Source: an uncultured bacterium
Lineage (GTDB): Bacteria > Macinerneyibacteriota > Macinerneyibacteria > Macinerneyibacteriales > CAYRFE01
DNA length: 64,000 bases
Reading direction: 5' to 3'
Assembly: GCA_964423645.1 (NCBI GenBank)
Contig: CAYRFE010000004.1
Span: 27,227 to 91,226, forward strand
The notes under the pieces: model-generated
Told to the model about the DNA's origin: nothing
What the model saw: only the letters and a program-made list of their open reading frames with translations
The model's database searches: none
Position numbers and translations under genes: made by a program
Shown here: in pieces, positions 4,366 to 63,945 of the stretch
Position numbering within the stretch: position 1 is the stretch's first letter
Layout of the letters: every line of letters starts with the position of its first letter

Positions 4366-5586
4366 TTAAATAAGCCCGATCGTTTTCCCCGCTTTGATTA
4401 TTTTTCCCAACGCAAGCTCAAGTTGAGGACGGGTGTGCGTTGCCATATAACTTGTGCGGATAAGTCCTTGACCCTTTGGCACTGCAGGAGAAACCGTCGG
4501 ATTGACAAATATATTATCATCTTGAAGAATTTTCCACATTTTAAACGTATCAATATCATCGCCGACAATTATCGGTATAATCGGAGTCTCCGCGTGTCCG
4601 ACATTGAATCCGGCCTTTTTCAAACCGTTCAGCATAAAATTGGTATTGTCCCATAATTTGGTAATCAATTCCGGTTCGCGTTCCATAACATCAAGCGCAC
4701 CCATTACAGAACCGGCAGAACCCGGAGGCAACGACGCGCTGAAGATCAACGAACGTGCTTTATGTTTCACAAAATCGATTATTCTCGCATCTCCCGCAAC
4801 AAAACCACCGACTGAAGCCAATGATTTTGAGAATGTGCCGATGACCAAATCGACCTCATTCGCCAGATTAAAATGCTTTGCGGTTCCTCCCCCGTCTTTG
4901 CCCAATACACCCAAAGAATGTGCATCATCGACGATCACACGTGCTCCGTATTTTTTTGCAAGACTTACTATTTCAGGAAGCTTGGCAATATCGCCGTCCA
5001 TCGAGAATATACCGTCGGTAATGATAACCTTCGGATCATCTTTATGTGTTTTTAATACTTTTTCCAGATGATTCATATCTGCATGATTGTAGCGAACCAT
5101 TTTCCCGTACGACATACGTATACCGTCTAAAATACTCGCATGATCAAGTTTGTCGGTGATAACAACGTCTTCTTTTTGACTGGCTATGGCAGAAATGCCC
5201 CCAAGATTCGCCTGATACCCTGTTGCGAACACAAGAGCAGCTTCTTTTCCCGCTAATTTTGCCAAACGTGCCTCAAGCTCTATATGGATATCAAGTGTAC
5301 CATTTAGAAAACGAGAACCGGCACATCCTGTACCGTACTTTTCGATCGCGTCCTGAGCAGCTTTTTTCACATACGGGTGATTGGTCAAACCCAAATAGCT
5401 GTTGGAACCCAACATCAGCACCCGTTTCCCGTTCATGGTGACCTCTGAATCCTGGTCGGACTCAATAATTCTAAAGTAAGGATAAAATCCCGATGCTCGC
5501 GCACGGTCTGCTTCGTTCTCAATATATGCTTTTTCAAAAATATCCATGTCTGTTTCCCCCTCTATCGTTTTATTGTGCTCATTCAT
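4366..5586 (-). CDS. Alpha-oxoamine synthase, serine palmitoyltransferase-like (class II aminotransferase; Kbl/BioF family)
   Basis: PLP-lysine block GTFSKSLASVGGFVAG, FSASLPP, FATGYQANLG and GTGCAGSRFLNGT. By recall these blocks are closer to bacterial SPT than to E. coli Kbl (GTLGKALGG) or BioF. Confidence 0.75.
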   Translation of the reverse strand: MNEHNKTIEGETDMDIFEKAYIENEADRARASGFYPYFRIIESDQDSEVTMNGKRVLMLGSNSYLGLTNHPYVKKAAQDAIEKYGTGCAGSRFLNGTLDIHIELEARLAKLAGKEAALVFATGYQANLGGISAIASQKEDVVITDKLDHASILDGIRMSYGKMVRYNHADMNHLEKVLKTHKDDPKVIITDGIFSMDGDIAKLPEIVSLAKKYGARVIVDDAHSLGVLGKDGGGTAKHFNLANEVDLVIGTFSKSLASVGGFVAGDARIIDFVKHKARSLIFSASLPPGSAGSVMGALDVMEREPELITKLWDNTNFMLNGLKKAGFNVGHAETPIIPIIVGDDIDTFKMWKILQDDNIFVNPTVSPAVPKGQGLIRTSYMATHTRPQLELALGKIIKAGKTIGLI

Positions 5587-5778: not shown

Positions 5779-7119
5779 TTATAACTCTACGTCCATTCCG
5801 ACCGTTTTCAACAAATTATACCAACTCAGATAATAGGCATATTTTGCATTAAGATAATCAACACGTGCTTGTGCATGCTCACGCAAAGCCTCGATTGATG
5901 CCGCATCATCGCTCATACCGAGATCATATTGTTTTAACAAGCGGTCTCGCTTGCTTTCTTTGAGATTCATATCGGTCGTTTTATATTCGAAATAATTCTT
6001 TGATTCGATAAATGAAAAATATTTATCTTTTACGATTCGCTCCAGTGCAAGTGATTTATTGGCAGTCTTGTCGATCTCATATAAATACGCGATCTTGCTT
6101 GATAACACTCCCGGAGTGGTAAGGTCCCCTGTCAACAAAGAACCCGTTACCGTATATCCTTTGCCGGCATCTTCATCACTCGGACGCTCCTGAATCCCGT
6201 AATATGATGCACTTGCCGATGAATAGAGCCATCCTGACAGACTCAGGGAAAAACCGTACTCAAAATCATCATCATTCATATCAGAAAAACTTTCACCTGC
6301 ATAATTATACTTCACATATACGCTTAATTTCGGCCATTTCGCCAATTTATCTGCCCAATAACCATATTTTGCCGCACGATATGTATTCACTTGATTTTTG
6401 TATTCATAACTATTGTCTTTTGCATAGGCCAGATACTCGTCGATACTTTTCGGGGTTGTCTCTGAAAAATTAAAATCCTCCAAGACATTAAAATCTTTCT
6501 TCAGGTAATTCCGGAATGATAATCGCTCGATCTCATAATCATTTTTTGCTTTTGCAGTATTATATTCGGCCAATTTGTAGTATGACTCGTTCTCTAACAA
6601 GCCCTCACGACTTATCCGCCCAAGTTCAAAAAGTTTTTGTGCTTTTTCCCATTGCTTCTGCGCACTTTGAAGCTCATACTCCCAAACATTAATCATTTCT
6701 TGTTTTTTCAATACCGCAAAATATCTACTGATGGTATCAATTACGACATTTTTTTCGGTTTCAGAGAATTTCTGTCGTGCGGCACGCCATGAATAATAAC
6801 CGGAAAGATAATCAAACACTTCACGCCCGTTATAGAAAACCGGCTGTGACAATGTCAATGAACGGGAATATGATTCACTCATAACACCGCTCATATCTTC
6901 AGCTTCAAGATATTTATAACTGAGCGTCGCATCGGGAAGCATTCCCAATAAACCGTTGTTATGTTGAATAAACGCGATCTTCTCCCGATATTTCTCGACC
7001 TTATATTCGGTATTTGTCTCCAAAGAGATATCGATCGCTTCTTTTAGTGTAAGTGCGTGCGAAGTTGTAAAAAGAATCATAGCGGTTATTACAAATAAAA
7101 AACCGGATCGTTTCATCAT
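5779..7119 (-). CDS. TolC-like outer membrane efflux protein (OEP family)
   Basis: Signal peptide followed by LTLKEAIDISLETN, a typical OEP start. About 445 aa with a duplicated coiled-coil/beta architecture. No adjacent pump genes. Confidence 0.65.
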   Translation of the reverse strand: MMKRSGFLFVITAMILFTTSHALTLKEAIDISLETNTEYKVEKYREKIAFIQHNNGLLGMLPDATLSYKYLEAEDMSGVMSESYSRSLTLSQPVFYNGREVFDYLSGYYSWRAARQKFSETEKNVVIDTISRYFAVLKKQEMINVWEYELQSAQKQWEKAQKLFELGRISREGLLENESYYKLAEYNTAKAKNDYEIERLSFRNYLKKDFNVLEDFNFSETTPKSIDEYLAYAKDNSYEYKNQVNTYRAAKYGYWADKLAKWPKLSVYVKYNYAGESFSDMNDDDFEYGFSLSLSGWLYSSASASYYGIQERPSDEDAGKGYTVTGSLLTGDLTTPGVLSSKIAYLYEIDKTANKSLALERIVKDKYFSFIESKNYFEYKTTDMNLKESKRDRLLKQYDLGMSDDAASIEALREHAQARVDYLNAKYAYYLSWYNLLKTVGMDVEL

Positions 7120-30470: not shown

Positions 30471-33170
30471 TCATCCGTTATTCAGCAGATCATCATACAT
30501 CTTTTTACGGCAATCCGGACATATACTATGACTGAATTGTGCATCAGTATGTGTCTCTATATACCCCTCAACGCTTTTCCAGCCGTCTTTATCATGCACT
30601 TTTTTACAACCTGCACAAATATGTATGAACCCGCTAAGCGCTTTTGTGAGTGACGTGGTCAATTGTTCACTCATTGCGGCTCGTTCACGCTCAGCATCTT
30701 CCCGCAATGCAATCTCGTGCTGAATTTGACAATTGAGCGCGTGTAAAACGGCAAGCGTGCGCACACGTGCCAACAATTCATCCTTATCGAACGGTTTTAC
30801 CAGATAATCGTTTGCACCCGCTTTTAAACCGTTCACAATATCCTGCGGTTGATTTTTTGCAGTCAACATCAGAATGGGCATATCCATAAGAGAAAATTTT
30901 TCACGGATCTTGATCGCTACCTCATACCCCGACATTTTGGGCATCATTACGTCTAATAGGACAATATCAGGCACTGTCTCTTCTATTATTTTAAGGGCAT
31001 CAGGCCCATTCTCGGCTTTCAACACCGTATACCGAGCAAATACAAGATGATTGAGCAATACTTGCAAATTTACCGGATCATCATCAACAATGAGAACCGT
31101 TGATTGGGTCAGATCGCCTTGCGAATACTCAATGACACTATTTGTTGTGACGACATGAGGTTTGATCGCATGCTTCACGATCGGAATAGCATCTCCTGTA
31201 ATTTGCACAATGGACTTTTCATTGTATAACGGTAATGAGAACGAAAATGTTGAACCTTTCCCAACCTCAGACTCGACACGAATCGTACCGCGATGAAGCT
31301 CAATCAGTTTTTTAGTGATTGCCAACCCGATACCGGAACCGCCTGATCCCAATGTCTGAGCATTGGAAGCTTGCTCAAACGGCATGAATATACGCTCAAA
31401 TTGTTCGTGCGGGATACCAATCCCGGTATCGGTAATATGCACAACGCACATCCCCTCTTCAACTTCTGCGGTAACAACGACTCGCCCCTCTTCAGTATAT
31501 TTGATCGCATTTCCTATCAAATTGAGTAATATTTGTTGCAATCTGTCTTCATCCGCATAAACAAGGGGAAGGGCGCGTGAAATATCATTTACTAATGTAA
31601 TATTTTTCCCGGATTTCAAATGACCCGATATCTGAATAACCATGTCAACGATATCGTATACGATCAACGGTTTCTGATTGAGACTGATGTTTCTGTTCTT
31701 TAAATGCGAAAAATCTAAAATATCATTGATGAGATTCGTGAGTCTTTTTCCGCTGCCGATGATCATCATGAGATTATGTTTGGCTTGTTCCGTTAATACG
31801 CCTGCAACACCGTCATAAAGTGATTGTGCGATACCGATGATCCCGTTGAGCGGTGTACGCAACTCATGAGACGTATTTGCCATAAATTCATCTTTTAAAT
31901 GATCGAGAGCAACCAATTTTTCCGAGAACAATTCTACTTGGACAAATGCATTTGAGATACGTAACGACATTACATATGACTGGAACATAATGAATAAGAA
32001 AAACCCTACGGGAATAAGATATGCGGTCATAATGACCTGATGTGAATACAGGATATCATTTACTATCGTTGCTGCTAAAAATAAAAAACCCAAGAGCATG
32101 ACCTTTGCACTTTCCTGGCGATGTATGCTGGCTCGTATTAGAATGATAATTATATATATTGCAACGAGTACATCAAGCACTTCATACAACGGTAAAGTAT
32201 AAATATAAACTTTCGCGGGGAAAAACATTACAACTGAGACAAACAGAACTCCCATGATGACAAAGCCTTTGGTGATCGCAGGAAAATCTTCTTTAGGGAA
32301 CAATGAACATAAAAACAATAAAAACACCGGCAATACCATGTAATGGGGAATATAATCAAGTTTGACTAAAAATTCCCATCCGGCGTTGGGATAAATTATA
32401 TTAAGGAATCGCTCTCCATTTACTAATGAAAATAACGCAAATAAGAAACAGGTCAAACTAAAATACAATGTTGAAATATCTTTTTTTCGAAAAATATACA
32501 AACTGAAGTGATAAAAACCCATGAGAAGAAGTCCGCCGATTATGAACAGGTCAAACGCCAATCGTTTTGCAGTCGCCGTAAGCATCATCTGTTCGTTTCC
32601 TATTTCCATGATTCCTTCAATACCGCCGCGTACATGGGAAAAATTTGAAATTTGTAAGATAATATCAAATTCTTGTGCATTGGAAGGAAGAGCGGACATT
32701 TTATTCAACAAAAGGGGTTTCGCGGTACGGGGTGAGGCGGATACCACACCGTTCGTAATTATTGCTTCGCCATTGACCCATAAACGATACGAGGTTAAAG
32801 CGAACGGCATAAATACCATCAACCGTTCGGACGGCTTTTTTAAACGTACCCGCAAACGCATTGTCGCATATCCGTCGCCGGGTAATCGTTTATCACCAAT
32901 TTTTACGGCATTCCATGTCCCCGGCAACGTGATATATCCTGTTTGATTGTGCGTCGAGTTTGAAAAATCCTTCGGCTCCAACAGTTGATTCCAGTAGAAT
33001 TCCCATTCCCCGTTCAACGGAGCAATACCGTCGGTTATAAAATCCCATTGTGAAAGGTCTAACTCACCGGATTTCGATTGTATATAATTTTCTTTCACGG
33101 AACCGATTCTACATGACGTCATCAATACAATAACAATTCCGACGATTCCAATGAAAAATAACCGACGCAT
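30471..33170 (-). CDS. Hybrid sensor histidine kinase/response regulator with 7TMR-DISM sensor and C-terminal 4-Cys module
   Basis: Signal plus extracellular domain, then a 7-TM block (7TMR-DISM type). H-box HELRTPLNGIIG, HATPase G-boxes (GIGIP..GGSGIGL), REC domain (IVDDDPVN...DVMMPKMSG...KPF). C-terminus ICAGCKKVHDKDGWKSVEGYIETHTDAQFSHSICPDCRKKMYDDL. Confidence 0.85.
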   Translation of the reverse strand: MRRLFFIGIVGIVIVLMTSCRIGSVKENYIQSKSGELDLSQWDFITDGIAPLNGEWEFYWNQLLEPKDFSNSTHNQTGYITLPGTWNAVKIGDKRLPGDGYATMRLRVRLKKPSERLMVFMPFALTSYRLWVNGEAIITNGVVSASPRTAKPLLLNKMSALPSNAQEFDIILQISNFSHVRGGIEGIMEIGNEQMMLTATAKRLAFDLFIIGGLLLMGFYHFSLYIFRKKDISTLYFSLTCFLFALFSLVNGERFLNIIYPNAGWEFLVKLDYIPHYMVLPVFLLFLCSLFPKEDFPAITKGFVIMGVLFVSVVMFFPAKVYIYTLPLYEVLDVLVAIYIIIILIRASIHRQESAKVMLLGFLFLAATIVNDILYSHQVIMTAYLIPVGFFLFIMFQSYVMSLRISNAFVQVELFSEKLVALDHLKDEFMANTSHELRTPLNGIIGIAQSLYDGVAGVLTEQAKHNLMMIIGSGKRLTNLINDILDFSHLKNRNISLNQKPLIVYDIVDMVIQISGHLKSGKNITLVNDISRALPLVYADEDRLQQILLNLIGNAIKYTEEGRVVVTAEVEEGMCVVHITDTGIGIPHEQFERIFMPFEQASNAQTLGSGGSGIGLAITKKLIELHRGTIRVESEVGKGSTFSFSLPLYNEKSIVQITGDAIPIVKHAIKPHVVTTNSVIEYSQGDLTQSTVLIVDDDPVNLQVLLNHLVFARYTVLKAENGPDALKIIEETVPDIVLLDVMMPKMSGYEVAIKIREKFSLMDMPILMLTAKNQPQDIVNGLKAGANDYLVKPFDKDELLARVRTLAVLHALNCQIQHEIALREDAERERAAMSEQLTTSLTKALSGFIHICAGCKKVHDKDGWKSVEGYIETHTDAQFSHSICPDCRKKMYDDLLNNG

Positions 33171-33187: not shown

Positions 33188-33421
33188 TTATATACCTGGA
33201 AATGAATCAACATACTGAATTGTAAAATCAGGGAATGAATCGACGATTTGTATTTTATAATCCGGAAAAGAGGTCACTTCTTCCCACTTTCCTATCGAAT
33301 CCGGGAATGAACTCACCATCTGAACGCGTAGGTCGGGAAAAGAGGTCACGACCTGAACTTTGAAATCGGGAAAAGAATCAACAAACTGAATTTTCCCGTA
33401 GATACGTGATACATCTGCCAT
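33188..33421 (-). CDS. Mini-protein of six or seven tandem 11-residue repeats (x-[IV]-Q-x-V-[DST]-SFPD-x)
   Basis: MADVSRIYGKIQFVDSFPDFKVQVVTSFPDLRVQMVSSFPDSIGKWEEVTSFPDYKIQIVDSFPDFTIQYVDSFPGI. Its stop is 18 nt upstream of the kinase ATG. Confidence 0.5.
   Translation of the reverse strand: MADVSRIYGKIQFVDSFPDFKVQVVTSFPDLRVQMVSSFPDSIGKWEEVTSFPDYKIQIVDSFPDFTIQYVDSFPGI
33190..33400. repeat. In-frame 33-nt tandem repeat array (coding)
   Basis: Units such as cgggaaaagaggtcacgacctgaactttgaaat recur six or seven times and underlie the 11-aa protein repeats. Confidence 0.7.
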
Positions 33422-33891: not shown

Positions 33892-34105
33892 GAAACCTTT
33901 GCGAAAATCAAAATATCTTAATGACGATCATTTCCCAAATACGGACGTGAGGATACAGTCATCATTTAGACCTTTGCAAAATTCAAAATTTCCTAAGTAT
34001 CTTTACTTTCTATAAAGGGGGTACACAAATTCAAAATTTGGTAGTTTTGCAAAGGTCTTCAACAGGCGATCAAAATATGCGAGAACTTTGTCCCCGCACC
34101 CCTTT
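33892..34105. repeat. Compound REP/MITE-like element (two left ends, one right end, G-rich tail)
   Basis: aaacctttgcgaaaatcaaaat; tagacctttgcaaaattcaaaattt; inverted aaattcaaaatttggtagttttgcaaaggtc; ctttgtccccgcacccc. Confidence 0.6.
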
Positions 34106-34183
34106 TGTTTCAAATCCCTCGCAATGTAAATGAACAAACCCCATAGCATGTGCTATGGGGCTGTTTTAAAAAAACGTCCTTAA

Positions 34184-35323
34184 TCACTGCATCTCATTAC
34201 AAATATATACGGTATTCGACCCCTCGATCAGTGTTTCATCCTCACCGAATGCAGCACTTGCAATTACATAAAAAGTGGTATTTCTTGTAAATAACTGCAC
34301 TTGAATACGTGTATCGAGAAACGGCATCTCAATTCTTTTTACATACTGCCCGCTTGTTTTATCAAAAACATCAATGTACGGATGCTCAACACCAGGAACC
34401 TTTCCCCATGTTCTTTTTTTGTAACTTTGTGTATAAGAAATATACCCGCCAGAAGCTCTAACTACGTATATATACTTTTCTGTTACGCAAAAATCAGACA
34501 CGGTTAATGCCCCGACAGGTTGCACCGATCCGTCAGCGATCTTTATCTGTTTTGCACACAACACAGAATTAAGCGGGTCATTATTTTTAATTTCCATGAG
34601 CGGGACAAGCGAAAAGTCGTACACACGAAGTTCATACCTGTCTTCACCTTCTTGAAACGCCAGGTACAGACGTGTTGTATCCTGTCGCATGACATTGGCA
34701 TTGTACCCATAGAGCTTTACTCGCTCTTCCTGTGTTTCAGTTTTCAGATCAGTCGGAATTCCATTTATGATCTTCCCTTCTTTATCAGTACGAACCGCAT
34801 AATATGGTACGGTCGGAGCAAACACATACCCGTCAGGAGCGTAGGCGACATGCGACGGTCCCCGATAAAGCTGAAACTCCCCTTGGAGCAAAACACTATC
34901 CTGATGTTTGAGCTGTGTATCAAAAACTTCCAATGTTCGCTTCATGCCATCCAATACTACCACAGAATTATCGACAAATCCAAAATAAGGGATCCAACTA
35001 CTGAACTCACCTGGACCCTTACCTTCTTTTTTGATCATTACAACTTGCTCATTTAAGCCTGCGTCATACATTCGCAATGATTCTTTTCTTGTTTTTGCAT
35101 GAGCAGTACCCAGAAGCACATCTCCTGTGAGCGCGTTCACTGCCCCCATATACAAATACTCGGAATCGGCAAGTGTCCTTGATGTAACGACTGAAAGCTT
35201 AGTCACATTTTTTGCATTAATGGTATTCTGAACATAAATTACGCCGTTTCTCTCATTCGATGTATAATTCTTTGAACATCCAAATAGCATAAGCACACAT
35301 GTAACCATGAGTGATACTCTCAT
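34184..35323 (-). CDS. Lipoprotein, GKGPGEF-motif beta-propeller-like family (paralog 1)
   Basis: Lipobox LMLFGCS. EGKGPGEFSSW motif (NHL/6-bladed propeller-like). Paralogous to 35392-36519 and 39516-40538. Confidence 0.55.
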   Translation of the reverse strand: MRVSLMVTCVLMLFGCSKNYTSNERNGVIYVQNTINAKNVTKLSVVTSRTLADSEYLYMGAVNALTGDVLLGTAHAKTRKESLRMYDAGLNEQVVMIKKEGKGPGEFSSWIPYFGFVDNSVVVLDGMKRTLEVFDTQLKHQDSVLLQGEFQLYRGPSHVAYAPDGYVFAPTVPYYAVRTDKEGKIINGIPTDLKTETQEERVKLYGYNANVMRQDTTRLYLAFQEGEDRYELRVYDFSLVPLMEIKNNDPLNSVLCAKQIKIADGSVQPVGALTVSDFCVTEKYIYVVRASGGYISYTQSYKKRTWGKVPGVEHPYIDVFDKTSGQYVKRIEMPFLDTRIQVQLFTRNTTFYVIASAAFGEDETLIEGSNTVYICNEMQ

Positions 35324-35391
35324 ACGCCACTCCTACAATTTAAACACACATCATCCTCGCTATACACAGACGCTGAGCTCCCTTCATTTAT

Positions 35392-36519
35392 TTACAAACG
35401 AACCCCTTTTTCATACAAAGGATTCTTCAATACCGCGATGGCAAAATTTCTTGTTTGATTCTCGGCACGTTTCTTATTCATGAGTAAGTAGGTAGTTGGG
35501 CTCATATCCGCGATCTGAATTATGATATTGTCATGTGTCACACCAAGGATCTTCACAAAACCTCGTATACCGTTCAATTGCGTACAGATGATCTGTGCGG
35601 TCTGTCGCTTTGTCTTTCTATCAAAAGCTCGGATATCCACATCCACCACTCTGTATTCGAATGGTTTTCCATCCGTCGGCGTCGATGCTTTCTCATATCC
35701 TCCGCCAAAAGATGTATAGATATAGTTCTCATCAAAAGCGATACCTCCGATCACCCGATCTCCGACTTGAGTGATCGCACCGTTATAATTATACCATGAA
35801 CATTCCTTGTAGTCACTCGTGGATTTTAACGAATACGTTTGAATCACGTTGAGATCAATATCATATTGCTCAAGGGTAAACGGTCTGTTGTAATACCCCA
35901 AGAATAAACTTTTTTCAAACGGATCGTAAGATAATACACCGCCTTGGAAGGGATCACCGTCTTGGGGTACTTCTTTCTGAAGTACTTCATATGCCTGACT
36001 TTCGCTAACAGATAACCGAGTAAGATCGTATTTGAGCAATTTCACGCCAAACTTACCGTTGATATACATAAACGCATCATTGATCGTCACCGACATAGGG
36101 ACACCGATTTCATCATTTAATGCGATATCGTCAATGTGCTTCCCTTCAATTGAATAGAGAACAAGTTTATTTTGTGCATTGTCATAAATAACAATACGGT
36201 CATTCGCGATCGTAATGGCCATATGTGACTGAATTTCACCCGGCCCCTTTCCGTTTGCAATAGAGATTTGTCGAATTGTCTTTCCGCTAAGATCGGCAAA
36301 ACAAAATCCGCCGCTGTTCGTCAGTATTTGAGGATATATGACTGTTCCGTTGTAATAATTTACTGCAGACATCGCATAGCTGGTGGAAAATGATTCCGGC
36401 TCCCATACTGTAACGATTGGTGCATCAAGACTTGTGTGTGTTTTTGAACAACTCCACGTCAGGGCAACTATCATGATCAGAACAACAAGACCGAATCTCA
36501 CACTCCCTACATGTTTCAT
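35392..36519 (-). CDS. Lipoprotein, GKGPGE-motif beta-propeller-like family (paralog 2)
   Basis: Lipobox ALTWSCS. ANGKGPGEIQSH motif. Similar length to paralog 1. Confidence 0.55.
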   Translation of the reverse strand: MKHVGSVRFGLVVLIMIVALTWSCSKTHTSLDAPIVTVWEPESFSTSYAMSAVNYYNGTVIYPQILTNSGGFCFADLSGKTIRQISIANGKGPGEIQSHMAITIANDRIVIYDNAQNKLVLYSIEGKHIDDIALNDEIGVPMSVTINDAFMYINGKFGVKLLKYDLTRLSVSESQAYEVLQKEVPQDGDPFQGGVLSYDPFEKSLFLGYYNRPFTLEQYDIDLNVIQTYSLKSTSDYKECSWYNYNGAITQVGDRVIGGIAFDENYIYTSFGGGYEKASTPTDGKPFEYRVVDVDIRAFDRKTKRQTAQIICTQLNGIRGFVKILGVTHDNIIIQIADMSPTTYLLMNKKRAENQTRNFAIAVLKNPLYEKGVRL

Positions 36520-36776
36520 GCGTCCTCCTCATTCATCTATTTGACTCTCATTTCACCATTTTTGTTTCAATTTTTATTTGAACCCTTTGCGACACTACCG
36601 TTCTGGATATCATTTCCCGACCCGCGGCCCTTTTCTCACGACAAAGAAACAGTGGATAAGGTGTATTTTTCAAAGTTCTCCGTGTGAAATCCTAAAGGAA
36701 CGTCCCCTTCCTGTGTATCGCCCACTATTGTTACAGGTTAAGGGGACGTCGAGACCGCGATATTCACCGAATGAGA

Positions 36777-36920
36777 CTATCGTTCAGGCGATGGCAACAC
36801 TGATACAATGGTCTGCTCCGATTGGCTGGCCTGCGGTTTGTTCTTCGATGCAGACTCACCTTTTCCCGCACATCCTACGATCATGACAGAGATCATCAAA
36901 ACGAATACTAGTTTTTTCAT
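36777..36920 (-). CDS. Small lipoprotein (47 aa), not in the ORF track
   Basis: RBS AAAGGAGAAAATAT then ATG. MKKLVFVLMISVMIVGCAGKGESASKNKPQASQSEQTIVSVLPSPER. Lipobox IVGCAG. I translated it by hand from the minus strand. Confidence 0.4.
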   Translation of the reverse strand: MKKLVFVLMISVMIVGCAGKGESASKNKPQASQSEQTIVSVLPSPER

Positions 36921-36974
36921 ATATTTTCTCCTTTTTATGAAGATAATCCGCAGGCTCTATCTGCGGATCGACCT

Positions 36975-37400
36975 TCATCGACGGTCAATGTATATACGAA
37001 CGTGAGTTCCGTCACTTGATGTAACATTGACCAAATCCTCATCAATCTCATCAATACTTTCAGAAAGCCCTGCCAACAGCGTTGAAATATCGATTCCCTC
37101 TCTCTCGATCTGAATTGCTGCATCTTTCGGCATCATCGAGAGTGCAAGATGTGCAAGTTTTAAAGGGACCGCTACGCGTACTTTATCACCGTCATCAGCA
37201 TCGACTTCTATTCGAAGTTTTCCCTTCATATTCTTTTGCACAACAGGATCAATTTTCTTTACGCGCGCAGCCCCGTTTGAATAATCTCCGTTACCGGACT
37301 GTCTCGAGGATGCCCCCACTGCTTGCAGTAAACGTTCCGCTTGCTCGGGAGTGATTTTACCGTTTTCCAACATTTCAAGTATTTTTGCTTTTTCATCCAT
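36975..37400 (-). CDS. SHOCT-like domain protein
   Basis: N-terminal KILEMLENGKITPEQAERLLQAV amphipathic SHOCT-like motif. 141 aa. Confidence 0.5.
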   Translation of the reverse strand: MDEKAKILEMLENGKITPEQAERLLQAVGASSRQSGNGDYSNGAARVKKIDPVVQKNMKGKLRIEVDADDGDKVRVAVPLKLAHLALSMMPKDAAIQIEREGIDISTLLAGLSESIDEIDEDLVNVTSSDGTHVRIYIDRR

Positions 37401-37411
37401 GATGAACCTCC

Positions 37412-37846
37412 TTATAAACGTACGCTGACCGTTACATTGTCGCGACTCATGACATCAACTTCCACCGTTTCACATAATCCGATCAACGGATATTTTTTGA
37501 CGCATAAATAAACATTGGCACAAAGCCATGTGATCGGTTTGAACCAAAAATATTTCACGTACACATCTTTTGATTTTACGTATACACCGGAAAACACCTT
37601 TTTTTCATAGGGATGCACGCCTAAAACAAATAGAATATAGAAAAGCAAACTGATACCGAGATATGCAATGAACACCCAATGGAATACTCCGTCAATTCGA
37701 GTATTGATAAGATACAAAAGATACCATAACAACCCGGTTGCAATGAACAAAATAATCGTCGGTATAGCTTTTTTCACTACAATTCCTTTTATCGCCCAAT
37801 ACACGAAACTTACTGCAAAAAAGAGAATTATCATCCACATAATCAT
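37412..37846 (-). CDS. Membrane protein, hypothetical (4 TM)
   Basis: Hydrophobic helices MIILFFAVSFVYWAI, IILFIATGLLWYLLYLI, FIAYLGISLLFYILFVLG. Overlaps the upstream gene by 4 nt. Confidence 0.45.
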   Translation of the reverse strand: MIMWMIILFFAVSFVYWAIKGIVVKKAIPTIILFIATGLLWYLLYLINTRIDGVFHWVFIAYLGISLLFYILFVLGVHPYEKKVFSGVYVKSKDVYVKYFWFKPITWLCANVYLCVKKYPLIGLCETVEVDVMSRDNVTVSVRL

Positions 37847-38727
37847 GCCTTCACCGCTTTAATAAGTTTTTCGCCCTCTTCGGGTGTGATTTTACCACTG
37901 TCGATCATGTCAACTATGCGTTGTACATGCTTTTTGGTACTATCAACTTCAACTTCAATATCACTATTATTTTCGTGAGAGAACATTTTAACAGGATTAA
38001 ATTTCATAGACTTCAGCAAACTTTTAATCACGATTTTATCATCGGGATATTCACCCGATACATTGGTATCACCGCTGAGTGATTGGATAAACAATTGTGA
38101 ATCACCGGTATACGCAAGTATTTTTAAAGTGACATCACCTGACATGCTCTTGATCACGCCGTCTGTTGACAAATGAAGCGCTCCATTAATATTGCAATCC
38201 CCCGAATAACTGTTAAGTTCTAAGCCGGTCATTGTACCGCCGTTAATGATTATGTCTCCGCTGTATGAATTTAATCTCAATGCACCGTCCAATGTACCGA
38301 TCGTGACATCACCGCTGTATGCCTCCAACTTGAATCCTTCTGTAGTCATTCTGTCGACGATCATATCACCACTGTATGTTTTGCAATTACCGCTGAATTT
38401 AAGGTCATTGGCCGCTAAATCTCCTGCATAGGTCACTACCGAGCCGTCAAAGATAAGCGCTTCAGGGTAACGAATGACTACATCAGCGTTATCACCTGAT
38501 TTCCCCGGAGAGAGAATTATTATTCCAAACTTTTTTTCACGTTTATTTTCACGGATCTTCAATACGGTATTTTCCAATGACACATCAAAAATGTCATCCG
38601 CCGCATTTTTACGAAGTCCGGGAAATTCAATTTCAATATCTTTCCTGTCTTCAGCTTTAAATGTCAGATCACCGCTTTTTAATGAAATATCTAACGTGAG
38701 TCTTTCACCTGAATATTCAAAAATCAT
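37843..38727 (-). CDS. DUF4097 (toastrack/LiaG-YvlB-like) protein with C-terminal SHOCT-like motif
   Basis: Repetitive SGD beta-strand units (YSGDVTIGT, YSGDIIINGG, YSGDCNING, MSGDVTLK, LSGDTNVSG). C-terminal MIDSGKITPEEGEKLIKAV. Confidence 0.7.
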   Translation of the reverse strand: MIFEYSGERLTLDISLKSGDLTFKAEDRKDIEIEFPGLRKNAADDIFDVSLENTVLKIRENKREKKFGIIILSPGKSGDNADVVIRYPEALIFDGSVVTYAGDLAANDLKFSGNCKTYSGDMIVDRMTTEGFKLEAYSGDVTIGTLDGALRLNSYSGDIIINGGTMTGLELNSYSGDCNINGALHLSTDGVIKSMSGDVTLKILAYTGDSQLFIQSLSGDTNVSGEYPDDKIVIKSLLKSMKFNPVKMFSHENNSDIEVEVDSTKKHVQRIVDMIDSGKITPEEGEKLIKAVKA

Positions 38728-39119
38728 ACAGAACCTCCTTTTTTATTGATTCGGTCCATTGCATCCTCAAATGTGATTTTCCCTTCATTAAGCATATCAA
38801 GCACCTCATTAGCATCTTCAATCTCAATCGTATCTTCATCATTGACCCCCAATGATACTTTCGCTTTTTTCAAAAGATTTTTCACTTTCGGGTATGAACA
38901 ATTTAAAAGTTTTTCAACTTGCTTGATGCTACCCTCCGCATATAAAAACACTTTTATAAAACGAAGCGTTTCTTCGTCAAGATGAGCAGGACTACAATTG
39001 TGAAAATGCCCCGAAACACTGGAATCACATTGAAGACAATGAAATTGTGTGATTTCGACTTCTCCTCCGCACAACGGACACTTTGTTGCCATATCCATAT
39101 CATCAACTCCCTTCTTCAT
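38724..39119 (-). CDS. DUF2089-type zinc-ribbon/HTH protein with C-terminal SHOCT-like motif
   Basis: CPLCGGEVEITQFHCLQCDSSVSGHF zinc ribbon. HTH-like middle region. C-terminal EVLDMLNEGKITFEDAMDRI. Confidence 0.65.
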   Translation of the reverse strand: MKKGVDDMDMATKCPLCGGEVEITQFHCLQCDSSVSGHFHNCSPAHLDEETLRFIKVFLYAEGSIKQVEKLLNCSYPKVKNLLKKAKVSLGVNDEDTIEIEDANEVLDMLNEGKITFEDAMDRINKKGGSV

Positions 39120-39293
39120 AAGTATAGTTACATAATTTATAATGTCAAGCCTATGATATTAATTTTTTTAATATTTTTATTTATTTTATTACTTTTATTA
39201 ATACCTGCGGTCTCGTGCGTAATAACTGCCCCGCGGCTCGTCGCGTGTATACCAAAAATTATAACTAGCCTCACTTTTTATAGAGCGTGGTCT

Positions 39294-39356
39294 TCATCAC
39301 CACACCCCCTTTTAGAAAATAAAGATATTTTGGAAATTTTGAATTTTCAAAGGTCT
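39294..39356. repeat. REP/MITE-like element, left-end fragment (inverted)
   Basis: caccacaccccctttagaaaataaagatattttggaaattttgaattttcaaaggtctc is the reverse complement of the left end of the 29957 element. Confidence 0.55.
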
Positions 39357-39439
39357 CCTATACTGCCTTTGAACTTACTTAATCAATTAATCATGCATAT
39401 GGGGAACCATACAAACTTTTTTCCCCAACACCATGTATG

Positions 39440-39500
39440 ATCTCAAAATAAGAAAACAGGACGTGAAAAGGTTTGATAACTATTGATTTTTTCACGCCTT
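39440..39500 (-). terminator. Putative terminator after lipoprotein paralog 3
   Basis: Inverted repeat gacgtgaaaa...ttttcacgcc followed, on the minus strand, by the T-rich run tgttttcttatttt. Confidence 0.35.
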
Positions 39501-39515
39501 TCGCCATACCTTACT

Positions 39516-40538
39516 TTACAATCCGAAATCCACATCATACATATCTATCATGACTTTTTTGTTTTCATCTATAAATAGATGTACAATTTTACCGGGAAAA
39601 AATATAATATTTTTTGTTGTCCGCTTCACTTCAAACGGAAATTTTAACCGAGTTATTTCTTTTTTTGTATCGATATTTATACACTGCACGATAGAGCTTT
39701 CCATATCAAGTATATTCAATACTTTACCGGACCTATCAGGAAATACTTTTATTTCATTCTTGGAGAATGTTTTGATTTTTTTGATTAATTTTCCTGAAAA
39801 GTCATAAAGGTAGACCACCGAATTATCGCGATAATAATACAGCAGTTTTTTATTGGCGTCATTTTTTCTTTTCCACAGATCGGTCATATATATATACTTA
39901 TCATTAACCCCAAAACTATCAAACACCATACCATAATCATGAGTATCGTCTTTTAATTTCCACCCCGTAACTATTGGTTTAAAATTATTATCCATGATAT
40001 AGAATCGATACTTATTTTTCAAAAATGCGCCCTCGAGACCCACAAATCCGTCTTTATACTTCGATATTACCATTGGCGGAAACTGCTCTATGTTCAATGC
40101 GGAAAACAAATCGATATCGTTGTCATATACAAAAGTACCGCTGTTCTTTTTAAATACAGATAAGATCCCGCGAAAAGCATCATGAACAGCAATCTTGTCT
40201 ACTCCAATAAAAATTACATCACCCGCTACTTTAAACTCACCGGGTCCTTTCCCGGATTTACCAATTTTTCCAATCAACGTCCCGCGATAATCCCATACAT
40301 AAACATTAACCATTTGAGATGTAGCAACAATATATTCATCAGAAATTTTTAAGCGGGAAAAATGATTAAAAAAATTATCGTCGACACCTTCCAAAACAAT
40401 GCTTGTTTTATTTGTCATAATATCTTGAAATTCTTTAATATTTTTAATACGCTTTAAATTATCGTGAGTGATTTTATCTATTGAATATCCGTCAAATATT
40501 ACAAAAACCAATACTAATAGAAACAAAAAAACTTTCAT
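39516..40538 (-). CDS. Lipoprotein/secreted protein, GKGPGEF-motif family (paralog 3)
   Basis: GKSGKGPGEFKVAGDV motif. Start at ATG 40538 (MKVFLFLLVLVF) with RBS AAAGGAG. Confidence 0.55.
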   Translation of the reverse strand: MKVFLFLLVLVFVIFDGYSIDKITHDNLKRIKNIKEFQDIMTNKTSIVLEGVDDNFFNHFSRLKISDEYIVATSQMVNVYVWDYRGTLIGKIGKSGKGPGEFKVAGDVIFIGVDKIAVHDAFRGILSVFKKNSGTFVYDNDIDLFSALNIEQFPPMVISKYKDGFVGLEGAFLKNKYRFYIMDNNFKPIVTGWKLKDDTHDYGMVFDSFGVNDKYIYMTDLWKRKNDANKKLLYYYRDNSVVYLYDFSGKLIKKIKTFSKNEIKVFPDRSGKVLNILDMESSIVQCINIDTKKEITRLKFPFEVKRTTKNIIFFPGKIVHLFIDENKKVMIDMYDVDFGL

Positions 40539-41007
40539 ATTCAAACTCCTTTTAAGAAGGTGATACGCACGCGTGCCTCTCCACAATCATTTCGGAATAC
40601 CACAACCATGCAGCTCTGACCAATCACAATGCTCATTCTTATATACCTACATATCGCCTGTATCTTGCGGTCTGGTGACCATATCATCAAAAGAATTTTA
40701 TTGTGATAATCCTATATGAGCACATAATGTAGAATTATTTTTCATATCGTGCTACTTCTCCTATCAGTTTTTTAACATCCTCCTCATTGTGCAACAGACT
40801 GTTCATAGTATATATTTCTATCTGTCTGTCAACAGTAAAATGAGATATGTCTTGTTCTATATGCTTTCATAATGACAGCAATCAGCAATACTATACCACC
40901 TGACGTTACTATCTTTTTCAGCGACAATATTAGTACGCAAATTTCAATGTATGCAATCCTTCCGTATTGCACGAAAATAGATGTGGGCAAATATCAAAAA
41001 ATATTGG

Positions 41008-62520: not shown

Positions 62521-63945
62521 ATGGATCCGCTCATATCAGCATGTCTTATAGTTAAAAACGAAGAAAAAAACCTATCCCGATGCCTTCATTCGATTGTTGA
62601 TAAAGTCGATGAAATAATTGTGGTTGATACCGGCTCATCCGACAGTACAGTAGCATGTGCTAAAATATTTACCGATAAAGTCTACTATTTCCCGTGGATC
62701 AACGACTTCAGTGCAGCTCGCAATGAAAGCCTTGCATATGCACAATACGATTGGGTATTTGTCATTGACGCAGATGAAGTGCTCGATTCAACGTGTAATT
62801 TACAACAACTGATACGTGACAATCCTCATGCAACCGCCTTTACATTAAAAGAAATTGATGTCACCCCCGATAGTGAACCGGTAAGCATAAGCGTGAGCAG
62901 TGAGAGATTGTTTTTACGAAAAAACGCTCGGTATGATGCGTTAGTGCACAACGCTCTCACGCTTCAAAAACCGCTTGTCGTCCATCACGACTCTGTGTTG
63001 TACCATTACGGTTATAATATGAGTGATGCGGAACTTATAACCAAATACGAGCCGCGATTGCCCTTACTGGAAGAACGATGCAGATGTTACCCGTCTTTTG
63101 AGTCGGACTATTACCTTGCAAGTACCTATTTGATACTCAAGCGGTATAATGATGCATACGCTGTGTTTGAAAAAATAACGAAAAAGTATCCTCGCTTCGA
63201 ACGTCAAGAAAATATCAGAACAGGAATAAACATATGTTTTTTGGATTTTGTTTTGAATAATCCCGATAAAGGTTATTCCCGCGCAAGTCACTTTTTCGAA
63301 GCGACCAATCGACCGATTTTTTTATTTTTCAAAGGGATATTCGCTTCCAAAATCGGAAAATATACCGAATCAGAATCAGACCTGTCATTGGTCACTCCCG
63401 ATGATGATTTCCTTTCAATACCTGACCATCGACGATTGATCGCCTATGCACGAGGGATTAATGCGTTCTTCTGTAATAATATTGAGAGAGCACAACACTA
63501 TTTCAACGAATACATCGCGTCACATTCACCGGGAGAAGGACAATTGCTCGCAACAGCCGACACGTATGTCGCTATCAATCGGACTGATCTGCTCGAGTCC
63601 CTTGCGTCTGATCTTGAAAAATGTGAGCAGCCGCATGCTTGGGCGTTACGTGCCTTATATGCGGAAAAATCCGGAGATCTGCCCGGCGCGGTTCAATGGT
63701 ATAATCGTGCACTTGCGCACACCCCGAAGAGTGCGCTCTATAACGCATTGGGTGTGGTTCTTTTTCGTCTTAAGGATACTGAAAGAGCCGTTGAAATAAT
63801 AAAAAAGGCAGTTACGTGTTCACCTGTTGATATGCGTGCATTTGACAATCTCATGCTTATTTACAAAGATGTGCTCCACGATGAAACAAATTACGTCTAC
63901 TGGGAAGCGCAACGAAACACAATGAAAGGCACACATACCGTATGA
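62521..63945 (+). CDS. Family 2 glycosyltransferase with C-terminal TPR repeats
   Basis: ISACLIVKNEEKNLSRCLHS...VVDTGSSDST...DADEV is a GT2 (SpsA-like) N-terminus. TPR-like C-terminus. Confidence 0.8.
   Translation: MDPLISACLIVKNEEKNLSRCLHSIVDKVDEIIVVDTGSSDSTVACAKIFTDKVYYFPWINDFSAARNESLAYAQYDWVFVIDADEVLDSTCNLQQLIRDNPHATAFTLKEIDVTPDSEPVSISVSSERLFLRKNARYDALVHNALTLQKPLVVHHDSVLYHYGYNMSDAELITKYEPRLPLLEERCRCYPSFESDYYLASTYLILKRYNDAYAVFEKITKKYPRFERQENIRTGINICFLDFVLNNPDKGYSRASHFFEATNRPIFLFFKGIFASKIGKYTESESDLSLVTPDDDFLSIPDHRRLIAYARGINAFFCNNIERAQHYFNEYIASHSPGEGQLLATADTYVAINRTDLLESLASDLEKCEQPHAWALRALYAEKSGDLPGAVQWYNRALAHTPKSALYNALGVVLFRLKDTERAVEIIKKAVTCSPVDMRAFDNLMLIYKDVLHDETNYVYWEAQRNTMKGTHTV

Follow-up and report, generated by a model that had tools for sequence, protein, structure and literature searches.

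Within a 64,000-nucleotide stretch of contig CAYRFE010000004.1 (GenBank assembly GCA_964423645.1; positions 27,227 to 91,226 of the forward strand), which we call the window, four consecutive minus-strand genes encode a DUF2089 regulator, a Toastrack (DUF4097) protein, a small membrane protein with three transmembrane (TM) helices, and a 141-amino-acid (aa) protein, SHOCT-X, in which an N-terminal SHOCT-like hairpin is joined to a C-terminal domain, X. The conserved core of this set is the DUF2089/SHOCT-X gene pair, which is present in more than 10 phylum-level groups. Sequence comparisons suggest, with a probability that we put at about 0.5, that these genes specify a membrane-proximal assembly of a regulator and its partners, mediated by SHOCT-like domains, that links the state of the membrane to transcription. 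The four-gene layout is new; it is built from known parts and is of a kind already outlined computationally. Judging from the genes of the window, which include those for a TolC-family outer-membrane protein, a serine palmitoyltransferase of the CFB type and an IMP dehydrogenase whose closest named relatives come from Candidatus Mcinerneyibacteriales (74%), the host is an uncultured diderm bacterium and not a Firmicute. The features of the locus, in window coordinates, are as follows.

39156..39174, no strand: perfect palindrome ATATTAA-N5-TTAATAT just before the -35 box (candidate operator)
39121..39148, minus strand: putative sigma-70-type promoter TTGACA-16-TATACT, with the -35 box followed by TTATAAAT
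38724..39098, minus strand: DUF2089 regulator, 124 aa, with a CxxC...CxxC zinc ribbon, a helix-turn-helix (HTH) and a C-terminal SHOCT-like hairpin at 38739-38807
37843..38727, minus strand: 294-aa Toastrack (DUF4097) protein, in which a basic linker leads to a SHOCT-like hairpin at the C-terminus (37849-37926)
37412..37846, minus strand: membrane protein, 144 aa, with three N-terminal TM helices and a Lys-rich tail of ~65 aa that ends in the hairpin motif VEVDVMSRDNVTVSVRL
36975..37400, minus strand: SHOCT-X protein, 141 aa, with an N-terminal SHOCT-like hairpin (37314-37397), a disordered linker and the X domain (36978-37238)
36777..36920, minus strand: 47-aa lipoprotein open reading frame (ORF), with ribosome-binding site GGAG and lipobox IVGC (by eye)
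36700..36750, minus strand: long hairpin (stem of 16 bp) with a U-rich stretch after it; candidate operon transcript end

The conserved core was recognized in a neighbourhood survey that used SHOCT-X as its hallmark. A 13-sequence alignment served as the query against a collection of one genome per species, and the loci were annotated by iterative hidden Markov model (HMM) searches seeded with the proteins of the window; the counts given here refer to 83 loci, namely 80 other species-level loci together with L001-L003, which are copies of the window's own locus. In 78 of the 83 loci, a DUF2089 gene immediately precedes either the SHOCT-X gene itself or genes inserted between the two; the remaining loci are cut by contig ends. 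The closest relative, L004, shares 66% identity with the window in SHOCT-X. When the X domain alone, which comprises the ~87 C-terminal residues of the 141-aa protein and has no family match in Pfam or NCBIfam, was scanned with HMMER against 1.84 billion cluster representatives, 125 representatives were found at E<=1e-3. Nearly all of these are 110-200 aa long with X at the C-terminus, implying that X is essentially confined to the SHOCT-X architecture. No fold relative of X is detectable, and a jackhmmer match of X to "Toastrack" was discarded as profile contamination after iteration. Clustering of the flanking genes revealed no family that is conserved around the pair beyond single clades.

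Three layouts of the pair can be distinguished. In the four-gene layout, which is that of the window, the order is DUF2089, Toastrack with a C-terminal SHOCT-like hairpin (~295-317 aa), TM protein (~140 aa) and SHOCT-X. This arrangement, with Toastrack orthologs in the same position, is seen in L004-L009, L011-L013, L015-L016 and L018-L021 (reported as 14 other complete species, with three truncated contigs being consistent), and the genomes are labelled as Delongbacteria, WOR-3, Bacillota or Desulfuromonadaceae metagenome-assembled genomes (MAGs), or are unclassified. A three-gene layout, in which a TM protein of 82-92 aa separates DUF2089 from SHOCT-X, is found in Fermentibacteria, Sabulitectum and Aegiribacteria, and in single delta-proteobacterial, Spirochaetaceae and Actinomycetota MAGs. 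The pair alone is present in Clostridia, Halanaerobiales, Desulfosporosinus, Acidobacteriota, Planctomycetota, Izimaplasma and Zixibacteria, with Firmicute two-gene loci that carry X including L054, L056, L063, L068 and L077. Some two-gene loci have YvlB-like genes (N-terminal SHOCT-like hairpin plus Toastrack) just downstream, as in Halanaerobiales, and others have a YvlD-family (Phage_holin_4_2) gene, as is the case for the membrane gene 3' of the pair in Desulfosporosinus; these genes (L068 8741-9097; L055 8709-9839; L064 8713-10844) tie the pair to yvl-type components. The Toastrack-SHOCT protein also joins the pair in other arrangements (L053, L055, L064, L079), and one Cloacimonadota locus has the Toastrack-SHOCT gene and lacks the TM gene.

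All eight minus-strand ORFs of the initial annotation were recovered in place at 34184-40586. That annotation described overlapping stops and starts throughout the four genes, and this is correct for two of the three junctions: DUF2089 and Toastrack overlap by ATGA at 38724-38727, as do Toastrack and the TM gene at 37843-37846, and the TM gene is separated from that of SHOCT-X by an 11-nucleotide (nt) spacer that contains GGAGG. Given the overlapping junctions and the ribosome-binding sites, the set is read as co-transcribed and translationally coupled. The motif GK[IV]Tx[ED][EDQ] has exactly three matches in six frames of the window, confined to the DUF2089, Toastrack and SHOCT-X proteins, so that the common GKIT motif proposed for these three proteins is borne out. 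We consequently regard the four genes as a probable single unit joined by SHOCT-like domains. The operon is probably self-contained (36777-39148, minus strand), with its own promoter and a terminator hairpin of its own, and as a five-gene operon it would run from 39148 to ~36700. The fifth gene is the 47-aa lipoprotein, which is probably specific to this lineage: the corresponding place in L004 is occupied by a lipoprotein ORF of 49 aa, and the gene is absent from the other loci. Its ribosome-binding site, lipobox and L004 counterpart agree with the earlier description of an unannotated lipoprotein, except that metagenome gene callers already call the gene, as seen in L001-L003. An Rfam search returned a single, distant tRNA and no match in the long intergenic regions.

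Pfam supports the domain assignments proposed initially (DUF2089, DUF4097 and SHOCT), with one score falling just short. The ORF for the DUF2089 protein can be read as 131 aa, and in this form it matches the DUF2089-HTH family PF09862 at residues 47-92 (57.9 bits, cutoff 33.4) and the zinc ribbon PF22747 (35.4 bits, cutoff 27.6), for which the CPLC...CLQC cysteines are present. Its SHOCT-like hairpin scores 25.8 bits against PF22746 (E=7.8e-6), slightly below the cutoff of 27; the hairpin contains the motif GKITFED, which is kept across orthologs. Because the -10 box (39121-39126) adjoins the first ATG, the true start is most likely the ATG at 39098, giving the 124-aa form that public gene calls also use. 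The protein is predicted to be a DNA-binding transcription regulator with an HTH like those of sigma region 4 and GerE. The Toastrack domain (PF13349) of the 294-aa protein spans residues 12-225 (77.6 bits, cutoff 22.9, E=1.2e-21), with PF22746 at residues 268-293 (31.2 bits, cutoff 27), and SHOCT-X matches PF22746 at residues 2-29 (38.7 bits, E=6.7e-10, cutoff 27). Searches of PDB sequences with the DUF2089 and Toastrack proteins gave nothing significant. An AlphaFold2 model of SHOCT-X built from 26 sequences shows two N-terminal helices, a disordered linker (residues 32-54), and a fold that runs hairpin, three helices, hairpin.

The Toastrack, SHOCT-X and DUF2089 proteins have neither a signal peptide nor a TM segment. 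They are therefore predicted to be cytoplasmic, which leaves the 3-TM protein and the 47-aa lipoprotein as the putative points of contact with the envelope and speaks against an adhesin-like role, as had been suggested at the outset. The placement of the Toastrack protein with LiaG/YvlB-type proteins also fails. Identity with LiaG was rejected because the match to NF049997 reaches only 36.6 bits (cutoff 285) and the N-terminal TM segment is absent, and YvlB-type identity because the tag is single and C-terminal; moreover, when every gene within 10 kb was annotated with Pfam, none for PspA, PspC, LiaF or LiaRS was identified. A basic amphipathic stretch (residues ~228-245) separates the Toastrack domain from the SHOCT-like tag and may be a membrane-binding helix. 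In most orthologs this linker is the most amphipathic 14-mer of the protein (hydrophobic moment 0.5-0.7, charge +1 to +3). The linker of the window's own protein is weaker (hydrophobic moment 0.39, rank 25 of 281), and for this reason we give the feature little weight.

The SHOCT-like tags fall into two flavours. Those of Toastrack and SHOCT-X have 0.48-0.53 identity with each other and a common flavour, ILxMLxxGKITxEEAEKLLxAL, and the DUF2089 tag, with 0.28-0.35 identity to either, represents a second. The mean net charges of the tags (-2.2, -0.3 and -0.9) range from neutral to acidic, which makes the tags poorly suited to binding anionic lipids. Stand-alone SHOCT-like hairpins also exist: Delongbacteria loci have one or two ORFs of 45-66 aa, consisting of little beyond the hairpin, directly upstream of DUF2089 (L012 4860-5060; L013 6082-6234; L015 5940-6260; L016 6062-6226; L018 114-434), and in these genomes the operon promoter appears to sit further upstream.

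The 144-aa TM protein has no Pfam or NCBIfam match, and a word-index homolog search returned only the protein itself. A single-sequence AlphaFold2 model places helices at residues 2-24, 27-47 and 53-84, and these TM helices are all that it resolves. The tail is basic in most orthologs and, being Lys-rich, is expected to be cytoplasmic on the basis of the positive-inside rule. The protein is kept at the same position in complete four-gene loci, and the shorter protein of 82-92 aa stands there in three-gene loci. The long and short families do not align significantly over their whole length by hhalign (probability 16%); the C-terminal hairpin alone aligns, and both families have the motif GLxVDVxSxDxxxVxhxh in common. 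By hhalign, this hairpin can also be matched to the final hairpin of X (P=6.5e-6, probability 85%, 22 columns), a likeness between TM tail and X that is suggestive only. The short family, which lies between the DUF2089 and SHOCT-X genes in L022-L045 and similar loci (for example, L029 7731-7982), is itself without a Pfam model and is characterized by a conserved N-terminus (MPAFFLL...), a PLPWF motif and a C-terminal LHGLxVDVxS...F hairpin; the starts of its genes overlap the DUF2089 stop.

The region upstream of the DUF2089 gene contains two elements that may serve in its control. Of the promoter-like sites in 33900-40900, the putative promoter TTGACA-16-TATACT ranks first, with 11 of 12 positions matched, and the sequence TTGACAWTNTWAAW occurs once in the window. 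When 50 DUF2089 promoters were aligned on the -35 box, the consensus cTTGACA-wT-n-TTAA-w emerged, with T at position 7 in 44, T at position 10 in 43 and A at position 12 in 45 of the 50 (the first T of TTGACA being 0). In 33/50 DUF2089 promoters, TTAA follows the -35 box at a distance of no more than 10 nt, versus 31/631 other TTGACA sites of the same loci and 25/80 of such other sites when they are AT-rich. The second element is the palindrome ATATTAA-N5-TTAATAT, which is the sole match in the window (0.09 expected by chance) and is identical in L004. Inverted repeats containing TTAA occur in 23 of 73 DUF2089 promoter regions versus 17 of 306 control upstream regions, and at 70-80% AT the figures are 10/18 and 4/37, respectively. 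Examples elsewhere are CTTAAAG-N16-CTTTAAG around the -10 box of L050 and CCTTAAT-N3-ATTAAGG in Halanaerobiales. Phylogenetic footprinting therefore points to TTAA inverted repeats as candidate DUF2089 operators that recur across phyla. At the other end of the operon, the 101-nt stretch that contains the hairpin at 36700-36750 has a folding energy of -31.9 kcal/mol (z=-2.5 versus shuffles); the hairpin was missed by a simple terminator scan because its loop exceeds 8 nt.

We propose that the ancestral core consisted of the DUF2089 factor and SHOCT-X, and that genes for the Toastrack beta-helix scaffold and the 3-TM protein were inserted between them in the lineage of the window. Consistent with such modular gain, the TM protein and Toastrack each arrive with the same tag or hairpin motifs. 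The SHOCT-like hairpins would act as docking tags that gather the proteins of the operon at the membrane's inner face. Because the Toastrack and SHOCT-X tags are nearly identical and the tag of the factor is of the other flavour, the first two might share, or compete for, a single binding site on the DUF2089 factor. The X domain, in turn, might dock on the TM tail through the similar beta-hairpins. When the TM protein senses that the membrane has changed, the assembly would then shift such that the DUF2089 factor is held or freed, and the factor may autoregulate by acting at TTAA-type inverted repeats around its promoter, and possibly acts elsewhere too. A more ambitious form of this proposal, which we advance very tentatively, is that the pair forms the core of a widespread pathway, present in more than 10 phyla and independent of Psp and Lia, in which a two-flavour docking code permits partner switching and X is latched to the TM tail. 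If true, the docking-code reading would provide the first defined molecular role for SHOCT-like domains.

Several observations weigh against this proposal. The layout in which the pair occurs without a TM partner means that membrane linkage is not universal, and the one SHOCT domain that has been assayed showed no self-association (PMC3581485), a result that concerns homotypic pairing. The structural evidence is of limited quality, with moderate confidence for the SHOCT-X model (mean predicted local distance difference test, pLDDT, 69) and low confidence for the TM tail (pLDDT about 40), and the similarity between the TM-tail and X hairpins spans only ~20 residues. In the promoter, the spacer motif of the window, TTATAAAT, is one mismatch from the family-wide TTGACA-wTnTTAAw, TTAA inverted repeats are not enriched at 60-70% AT (4/31 versus 11/98), and kinship among the loci, together with AT richness, weakens the evidence for an operator. 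A terminator scan did not call a canonical terminator after the 47-aa gene, making read-through into lipoproteins B and A (described below) possible. Finally, no experimental function for DUF2089, SHOCT-like or X-domain proteins was found in the literature that we searched.

Other explanations for the same gene set deserve consideration. In the main one, the SHOCT-like hairpins would be membrane anchors that bring each protein to the inner leaflet on its own, with DUF2089 being controlled by reversible sequestration at the membrane rather than by contacts between tags. This is the published prediction (PMC11237479), and it fits the amphipathic character of the hairpins (hydrophobic moment of helix 2, 0.5-0.66), the lack of TM segments in the three tagged proteins, and the basic amphipathic stretch that precedes the Toastrack tag in orthologs. 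Nevertheless, the neutral-to-acidic charge of the hairpins is unusual for helices that bind anionic membranes (a mild argument), two tag flavours and stand-alone mini-SHOCT ORFs are better suited to a protein-docking code, and a dedicated TM protein would be redundant with tags that bind lipid; we consider control by anchoring possible and somewhat doubtful. It is rather unlikely, in our view, that Toastrack, the TM protein and SHOCT-X instead constitute an effector module, protecting or repairing the membrane as do the partners of PspA and LiaH, with DUF2089 as a local repressor that responds to an unrelated cue. YvlB-type Toastracks do bind PspA and LiaH and have been proposed to support envelope integrity (PMC9239133), the promoter architecture is compatible with simple autorepression, and a YvlD-family TM gene does follow the pair in Desulfosporosinus. 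Neither PspA nor PspC is encoded within 10 kb, however, and the regulator carries a tag of the same family and is paired with SHOCT-X even where the Toastrack and TM genes are missing, which indicates a relationship between regulator and partner.

The remaining explanations would widen the module or change its purpose. The first of them concerns three genes for propeller-like proteins that flank the operon and that the initial annotation described as paralogous lipoproteins belonging to it.

39516..40538, minus strand: propeller protein C, GKGPGEF, DUF5128; PF17170 39.0 bits (cutoff 22.9)
35392..36519, minus strand: propeller lipoprotein B, GKGPGEI, DUF5128, six-bladed; PF17170 30.1 bits (cutoff 22.9)
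34184..35323, minus strand: propeller-like lipoprotein A, GKGPGEF, lipobox LFGC (by eye); PF17170 18.7 bits, below the cutoff of 22.9

The motif GxGPGE has exactly three matches in six frames of the window, confined to these proteins, which appear to be highly divergent DUF5128 propellers; seen as members of the DUF5128/TolB-like family (PF17170), B and C pass the cutoff with the GxGPGE blade motif. The description of all three as paralogous lipoproteins has to be abandoned, given that mutual identity is 26-31% over 49-91 residues around the motif, that phmmer finds no connection among them, and that the signal/anchor region of C has no cysteine, so that this protein is not a lipoprotein. The lipobox of B, TWSC, is atypical, that of its L004 ortholog being FTGC (both by eye). 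A module for envelope stress sensing or adhesion that includes the propellers and the 47-aa lipoprotein along with the four genes might be suspected because the genes are all on the same strand, because the small lipoprotein adjoins lipoprotein B in L004 as well, and because the scan called no canonical terminator in the gap that separates lipoprotein B from the 47-aa gene. In the 80 other species-level loci, however, homologs of B adjoin the module in L004 only and those of A and C in none, making the propellers neighbours rather than components, and the three are barely alike. Such an absence had been named at the outset as grounds for rejecting the initial reading. In addition, the 47-aa gene is followed by a strong hairpin, protein C is set apart from the operon by ~370 nt and a separate promoter, and Toastrack is predicted to be cytoplasmic; a strong terminator, at 34137-34162, is located 3' of lipoprotein A. 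We regard the inclusive module as very unlikely. What survives of the stress-sensing module envisaged initially is the four-gene SHOCT unit, for which the literature predicts a signalling role (PMC11237479), with the propellers excluded. It is more improbable still that the genes, with their HTH regulator, form a cassette for toxin-antitoxin activity, defence against phages or bacteriocin immunity. The locus is compact and self-contained with variable flanks, and a DUF2089 gene followed by a small TM gene is also known from leaderless-bacteriocin loci: that of enterocin DD14 encodes an 89-aa DUF2089 protein and then a 90-aa protein with 2-3 TM helices, the same pairing of regulator and small TM protein as in our three-gene layout (PMC7332713). 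Against this, none of the five proteins matches PADLOC at E<=0.01, a tblastn search with SHOCT-X finds no match in plasmid and phage collections, and there is neither a toxin-like or enzymatic domain (Pfam, NCBIfam) nor a gene for a bacteriocin-like peptide.

The proposed SHOCT-mediated assembly can be compared with several known systems. Pfam models exist for all three parts of DUF2089. Ravi et al. (2024) split DUF2089 into zinc ribbon, HTH and SHOCT-like parts and described computationally a pair in which DUF2089 is followed by a SHOCT-like+X protein (PMC11237479). The pair in the window has the same three-domain regulator and a partner in which an N-terminal SHOCT-like hairpin precedes an unassigned C-terminal domain; the likeness to the published pair (neighbour of BMQ_3692, B. 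megaterium) is one of architecture. Unlike the published pair, the window has Toastrack-SHOCT and 3-TM genes in between and a small lipoprotein gene after, and the exact gene order is not found in the tables of Ravi et al. (PMC11237479), in agreement with the initial suggestion that the configuration may not have been described. Toastrack proteins have been predicted to be sub-membrane assembly platforms, linked with DUF2089 and active in membrane-associated stress signalling (PMC11237479), and YvlB behaves as an interaction hub in two-hybrid assays (PMC9239133). As in the window, DUF2089 and Toastrack are encoded together in the context, reported by Ravi et al., of a sigma factor, a zf-HC2/HEAT anti-sigma factor and a membrane-anchored Toastrack, and the predicted role, conveying membrane-associated signals to transcription, would be common to both. 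In contrast, Pfam annotation identifies no sigma or anti-sigma match in the operon and no sigma factor, zf-HC2 anti-sigma factor or operon-dedicated two-component pair within 10 kb of it; the Toastrack protein is soluble, with a C-terminal tag and no TM anchor, and SHOCT-X and the 3-TM protein are present instead.

The yvlABCD operon of Bacillus subtilis likewise combines a cytoplasmic Toastrack bearing SHOCT-like hairpins with small membrane proteins, YvlB having two SHOCT-like hairpins plus Toastrack, YvlC being PspC, and YvlD belonging to DUF360/Phage_holin_4_2. The window differs in that its tag is single and C-terminal, PspC is lacking, the 3-TM protein has no Pfam family, and a dedicated DUF2089 regulator is present. 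With LiaFSR-LiaG/LiaIH and PspF-PspA-PspBC the resemblance is probably one of logic only, in that membrane proteins control an autoregulated regulator through contacts at the inner face; the Toastrack fold is all that is common, and no two-component system, PspA or PspC is encoded in the operon or within 10 kb. Sequestration by anti-sigma factors also resembles the proposed mechanism in logic only.

Other genes in the window are recorded here as separate observations. An 899-aa hybrid histidine kinase (30471-33170, minus strand) combines 7TMR-DISM, HisKA/HATPase and receiver domains with a Cys-rich CxxC...CxxC tail; an ortholog is encoded in L004 (10623-13316), a few kb downstream of the module, and in L008 and L009 a large ORF that clusters with the kinase lies ~100 nt upstream of the module. 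The kinase was considered as a partner of the module (L001/L004, L008/L009) and set aside because its occurrence is too sporadic to count. A 77-aa ORF (33188-33421, minus strand), called as a gene on public contigs and without a Pfam or NCBIfam match, contains six or seven tandem repeats of ~11 residues with SFPD (for example, VDSFPDFKVQ). A serine palmitoyltransferase of the CFB type (4366-5586, minus strand; 575 bits, cutoff 640) is encoded beside a TolC-family outer-membrane protein (5779-7119, minus strand), which suggests possible sphingolipid synthesis in this Mcinerneyibacteriales-like bacterium. Finally, a 474-aa ORF (62521-63945, plus strand) gives a partial match to SunS-family peptide S-glycosyltransferases (71 bits, cutoff 350).

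SHOCT and SHOCT-like domains, Toastrack and DUF2089 are widespread, and none has an established molecular function. The practical value of the present analysis lies in annotation and in building hypotheses, and current views are not overturned by it. The operon nevertheless brings together three SHOCT-like tags, a Toastrack, a regulator and a membrane protein within 2.2 kb, and cultured hosts exist for the two-gene layout (e.g. Desulfosporosinus hippei DSM 8344). Because this 2.2-kb operon is coupled, belongs to a clean series of two-, three- and four-gene layouts and has a conserved promoter element, it offers a compact test bed for the binding partners of SHOCT-like domains, the scaffold role of Toastrack and the autoregulation of DUF2089.

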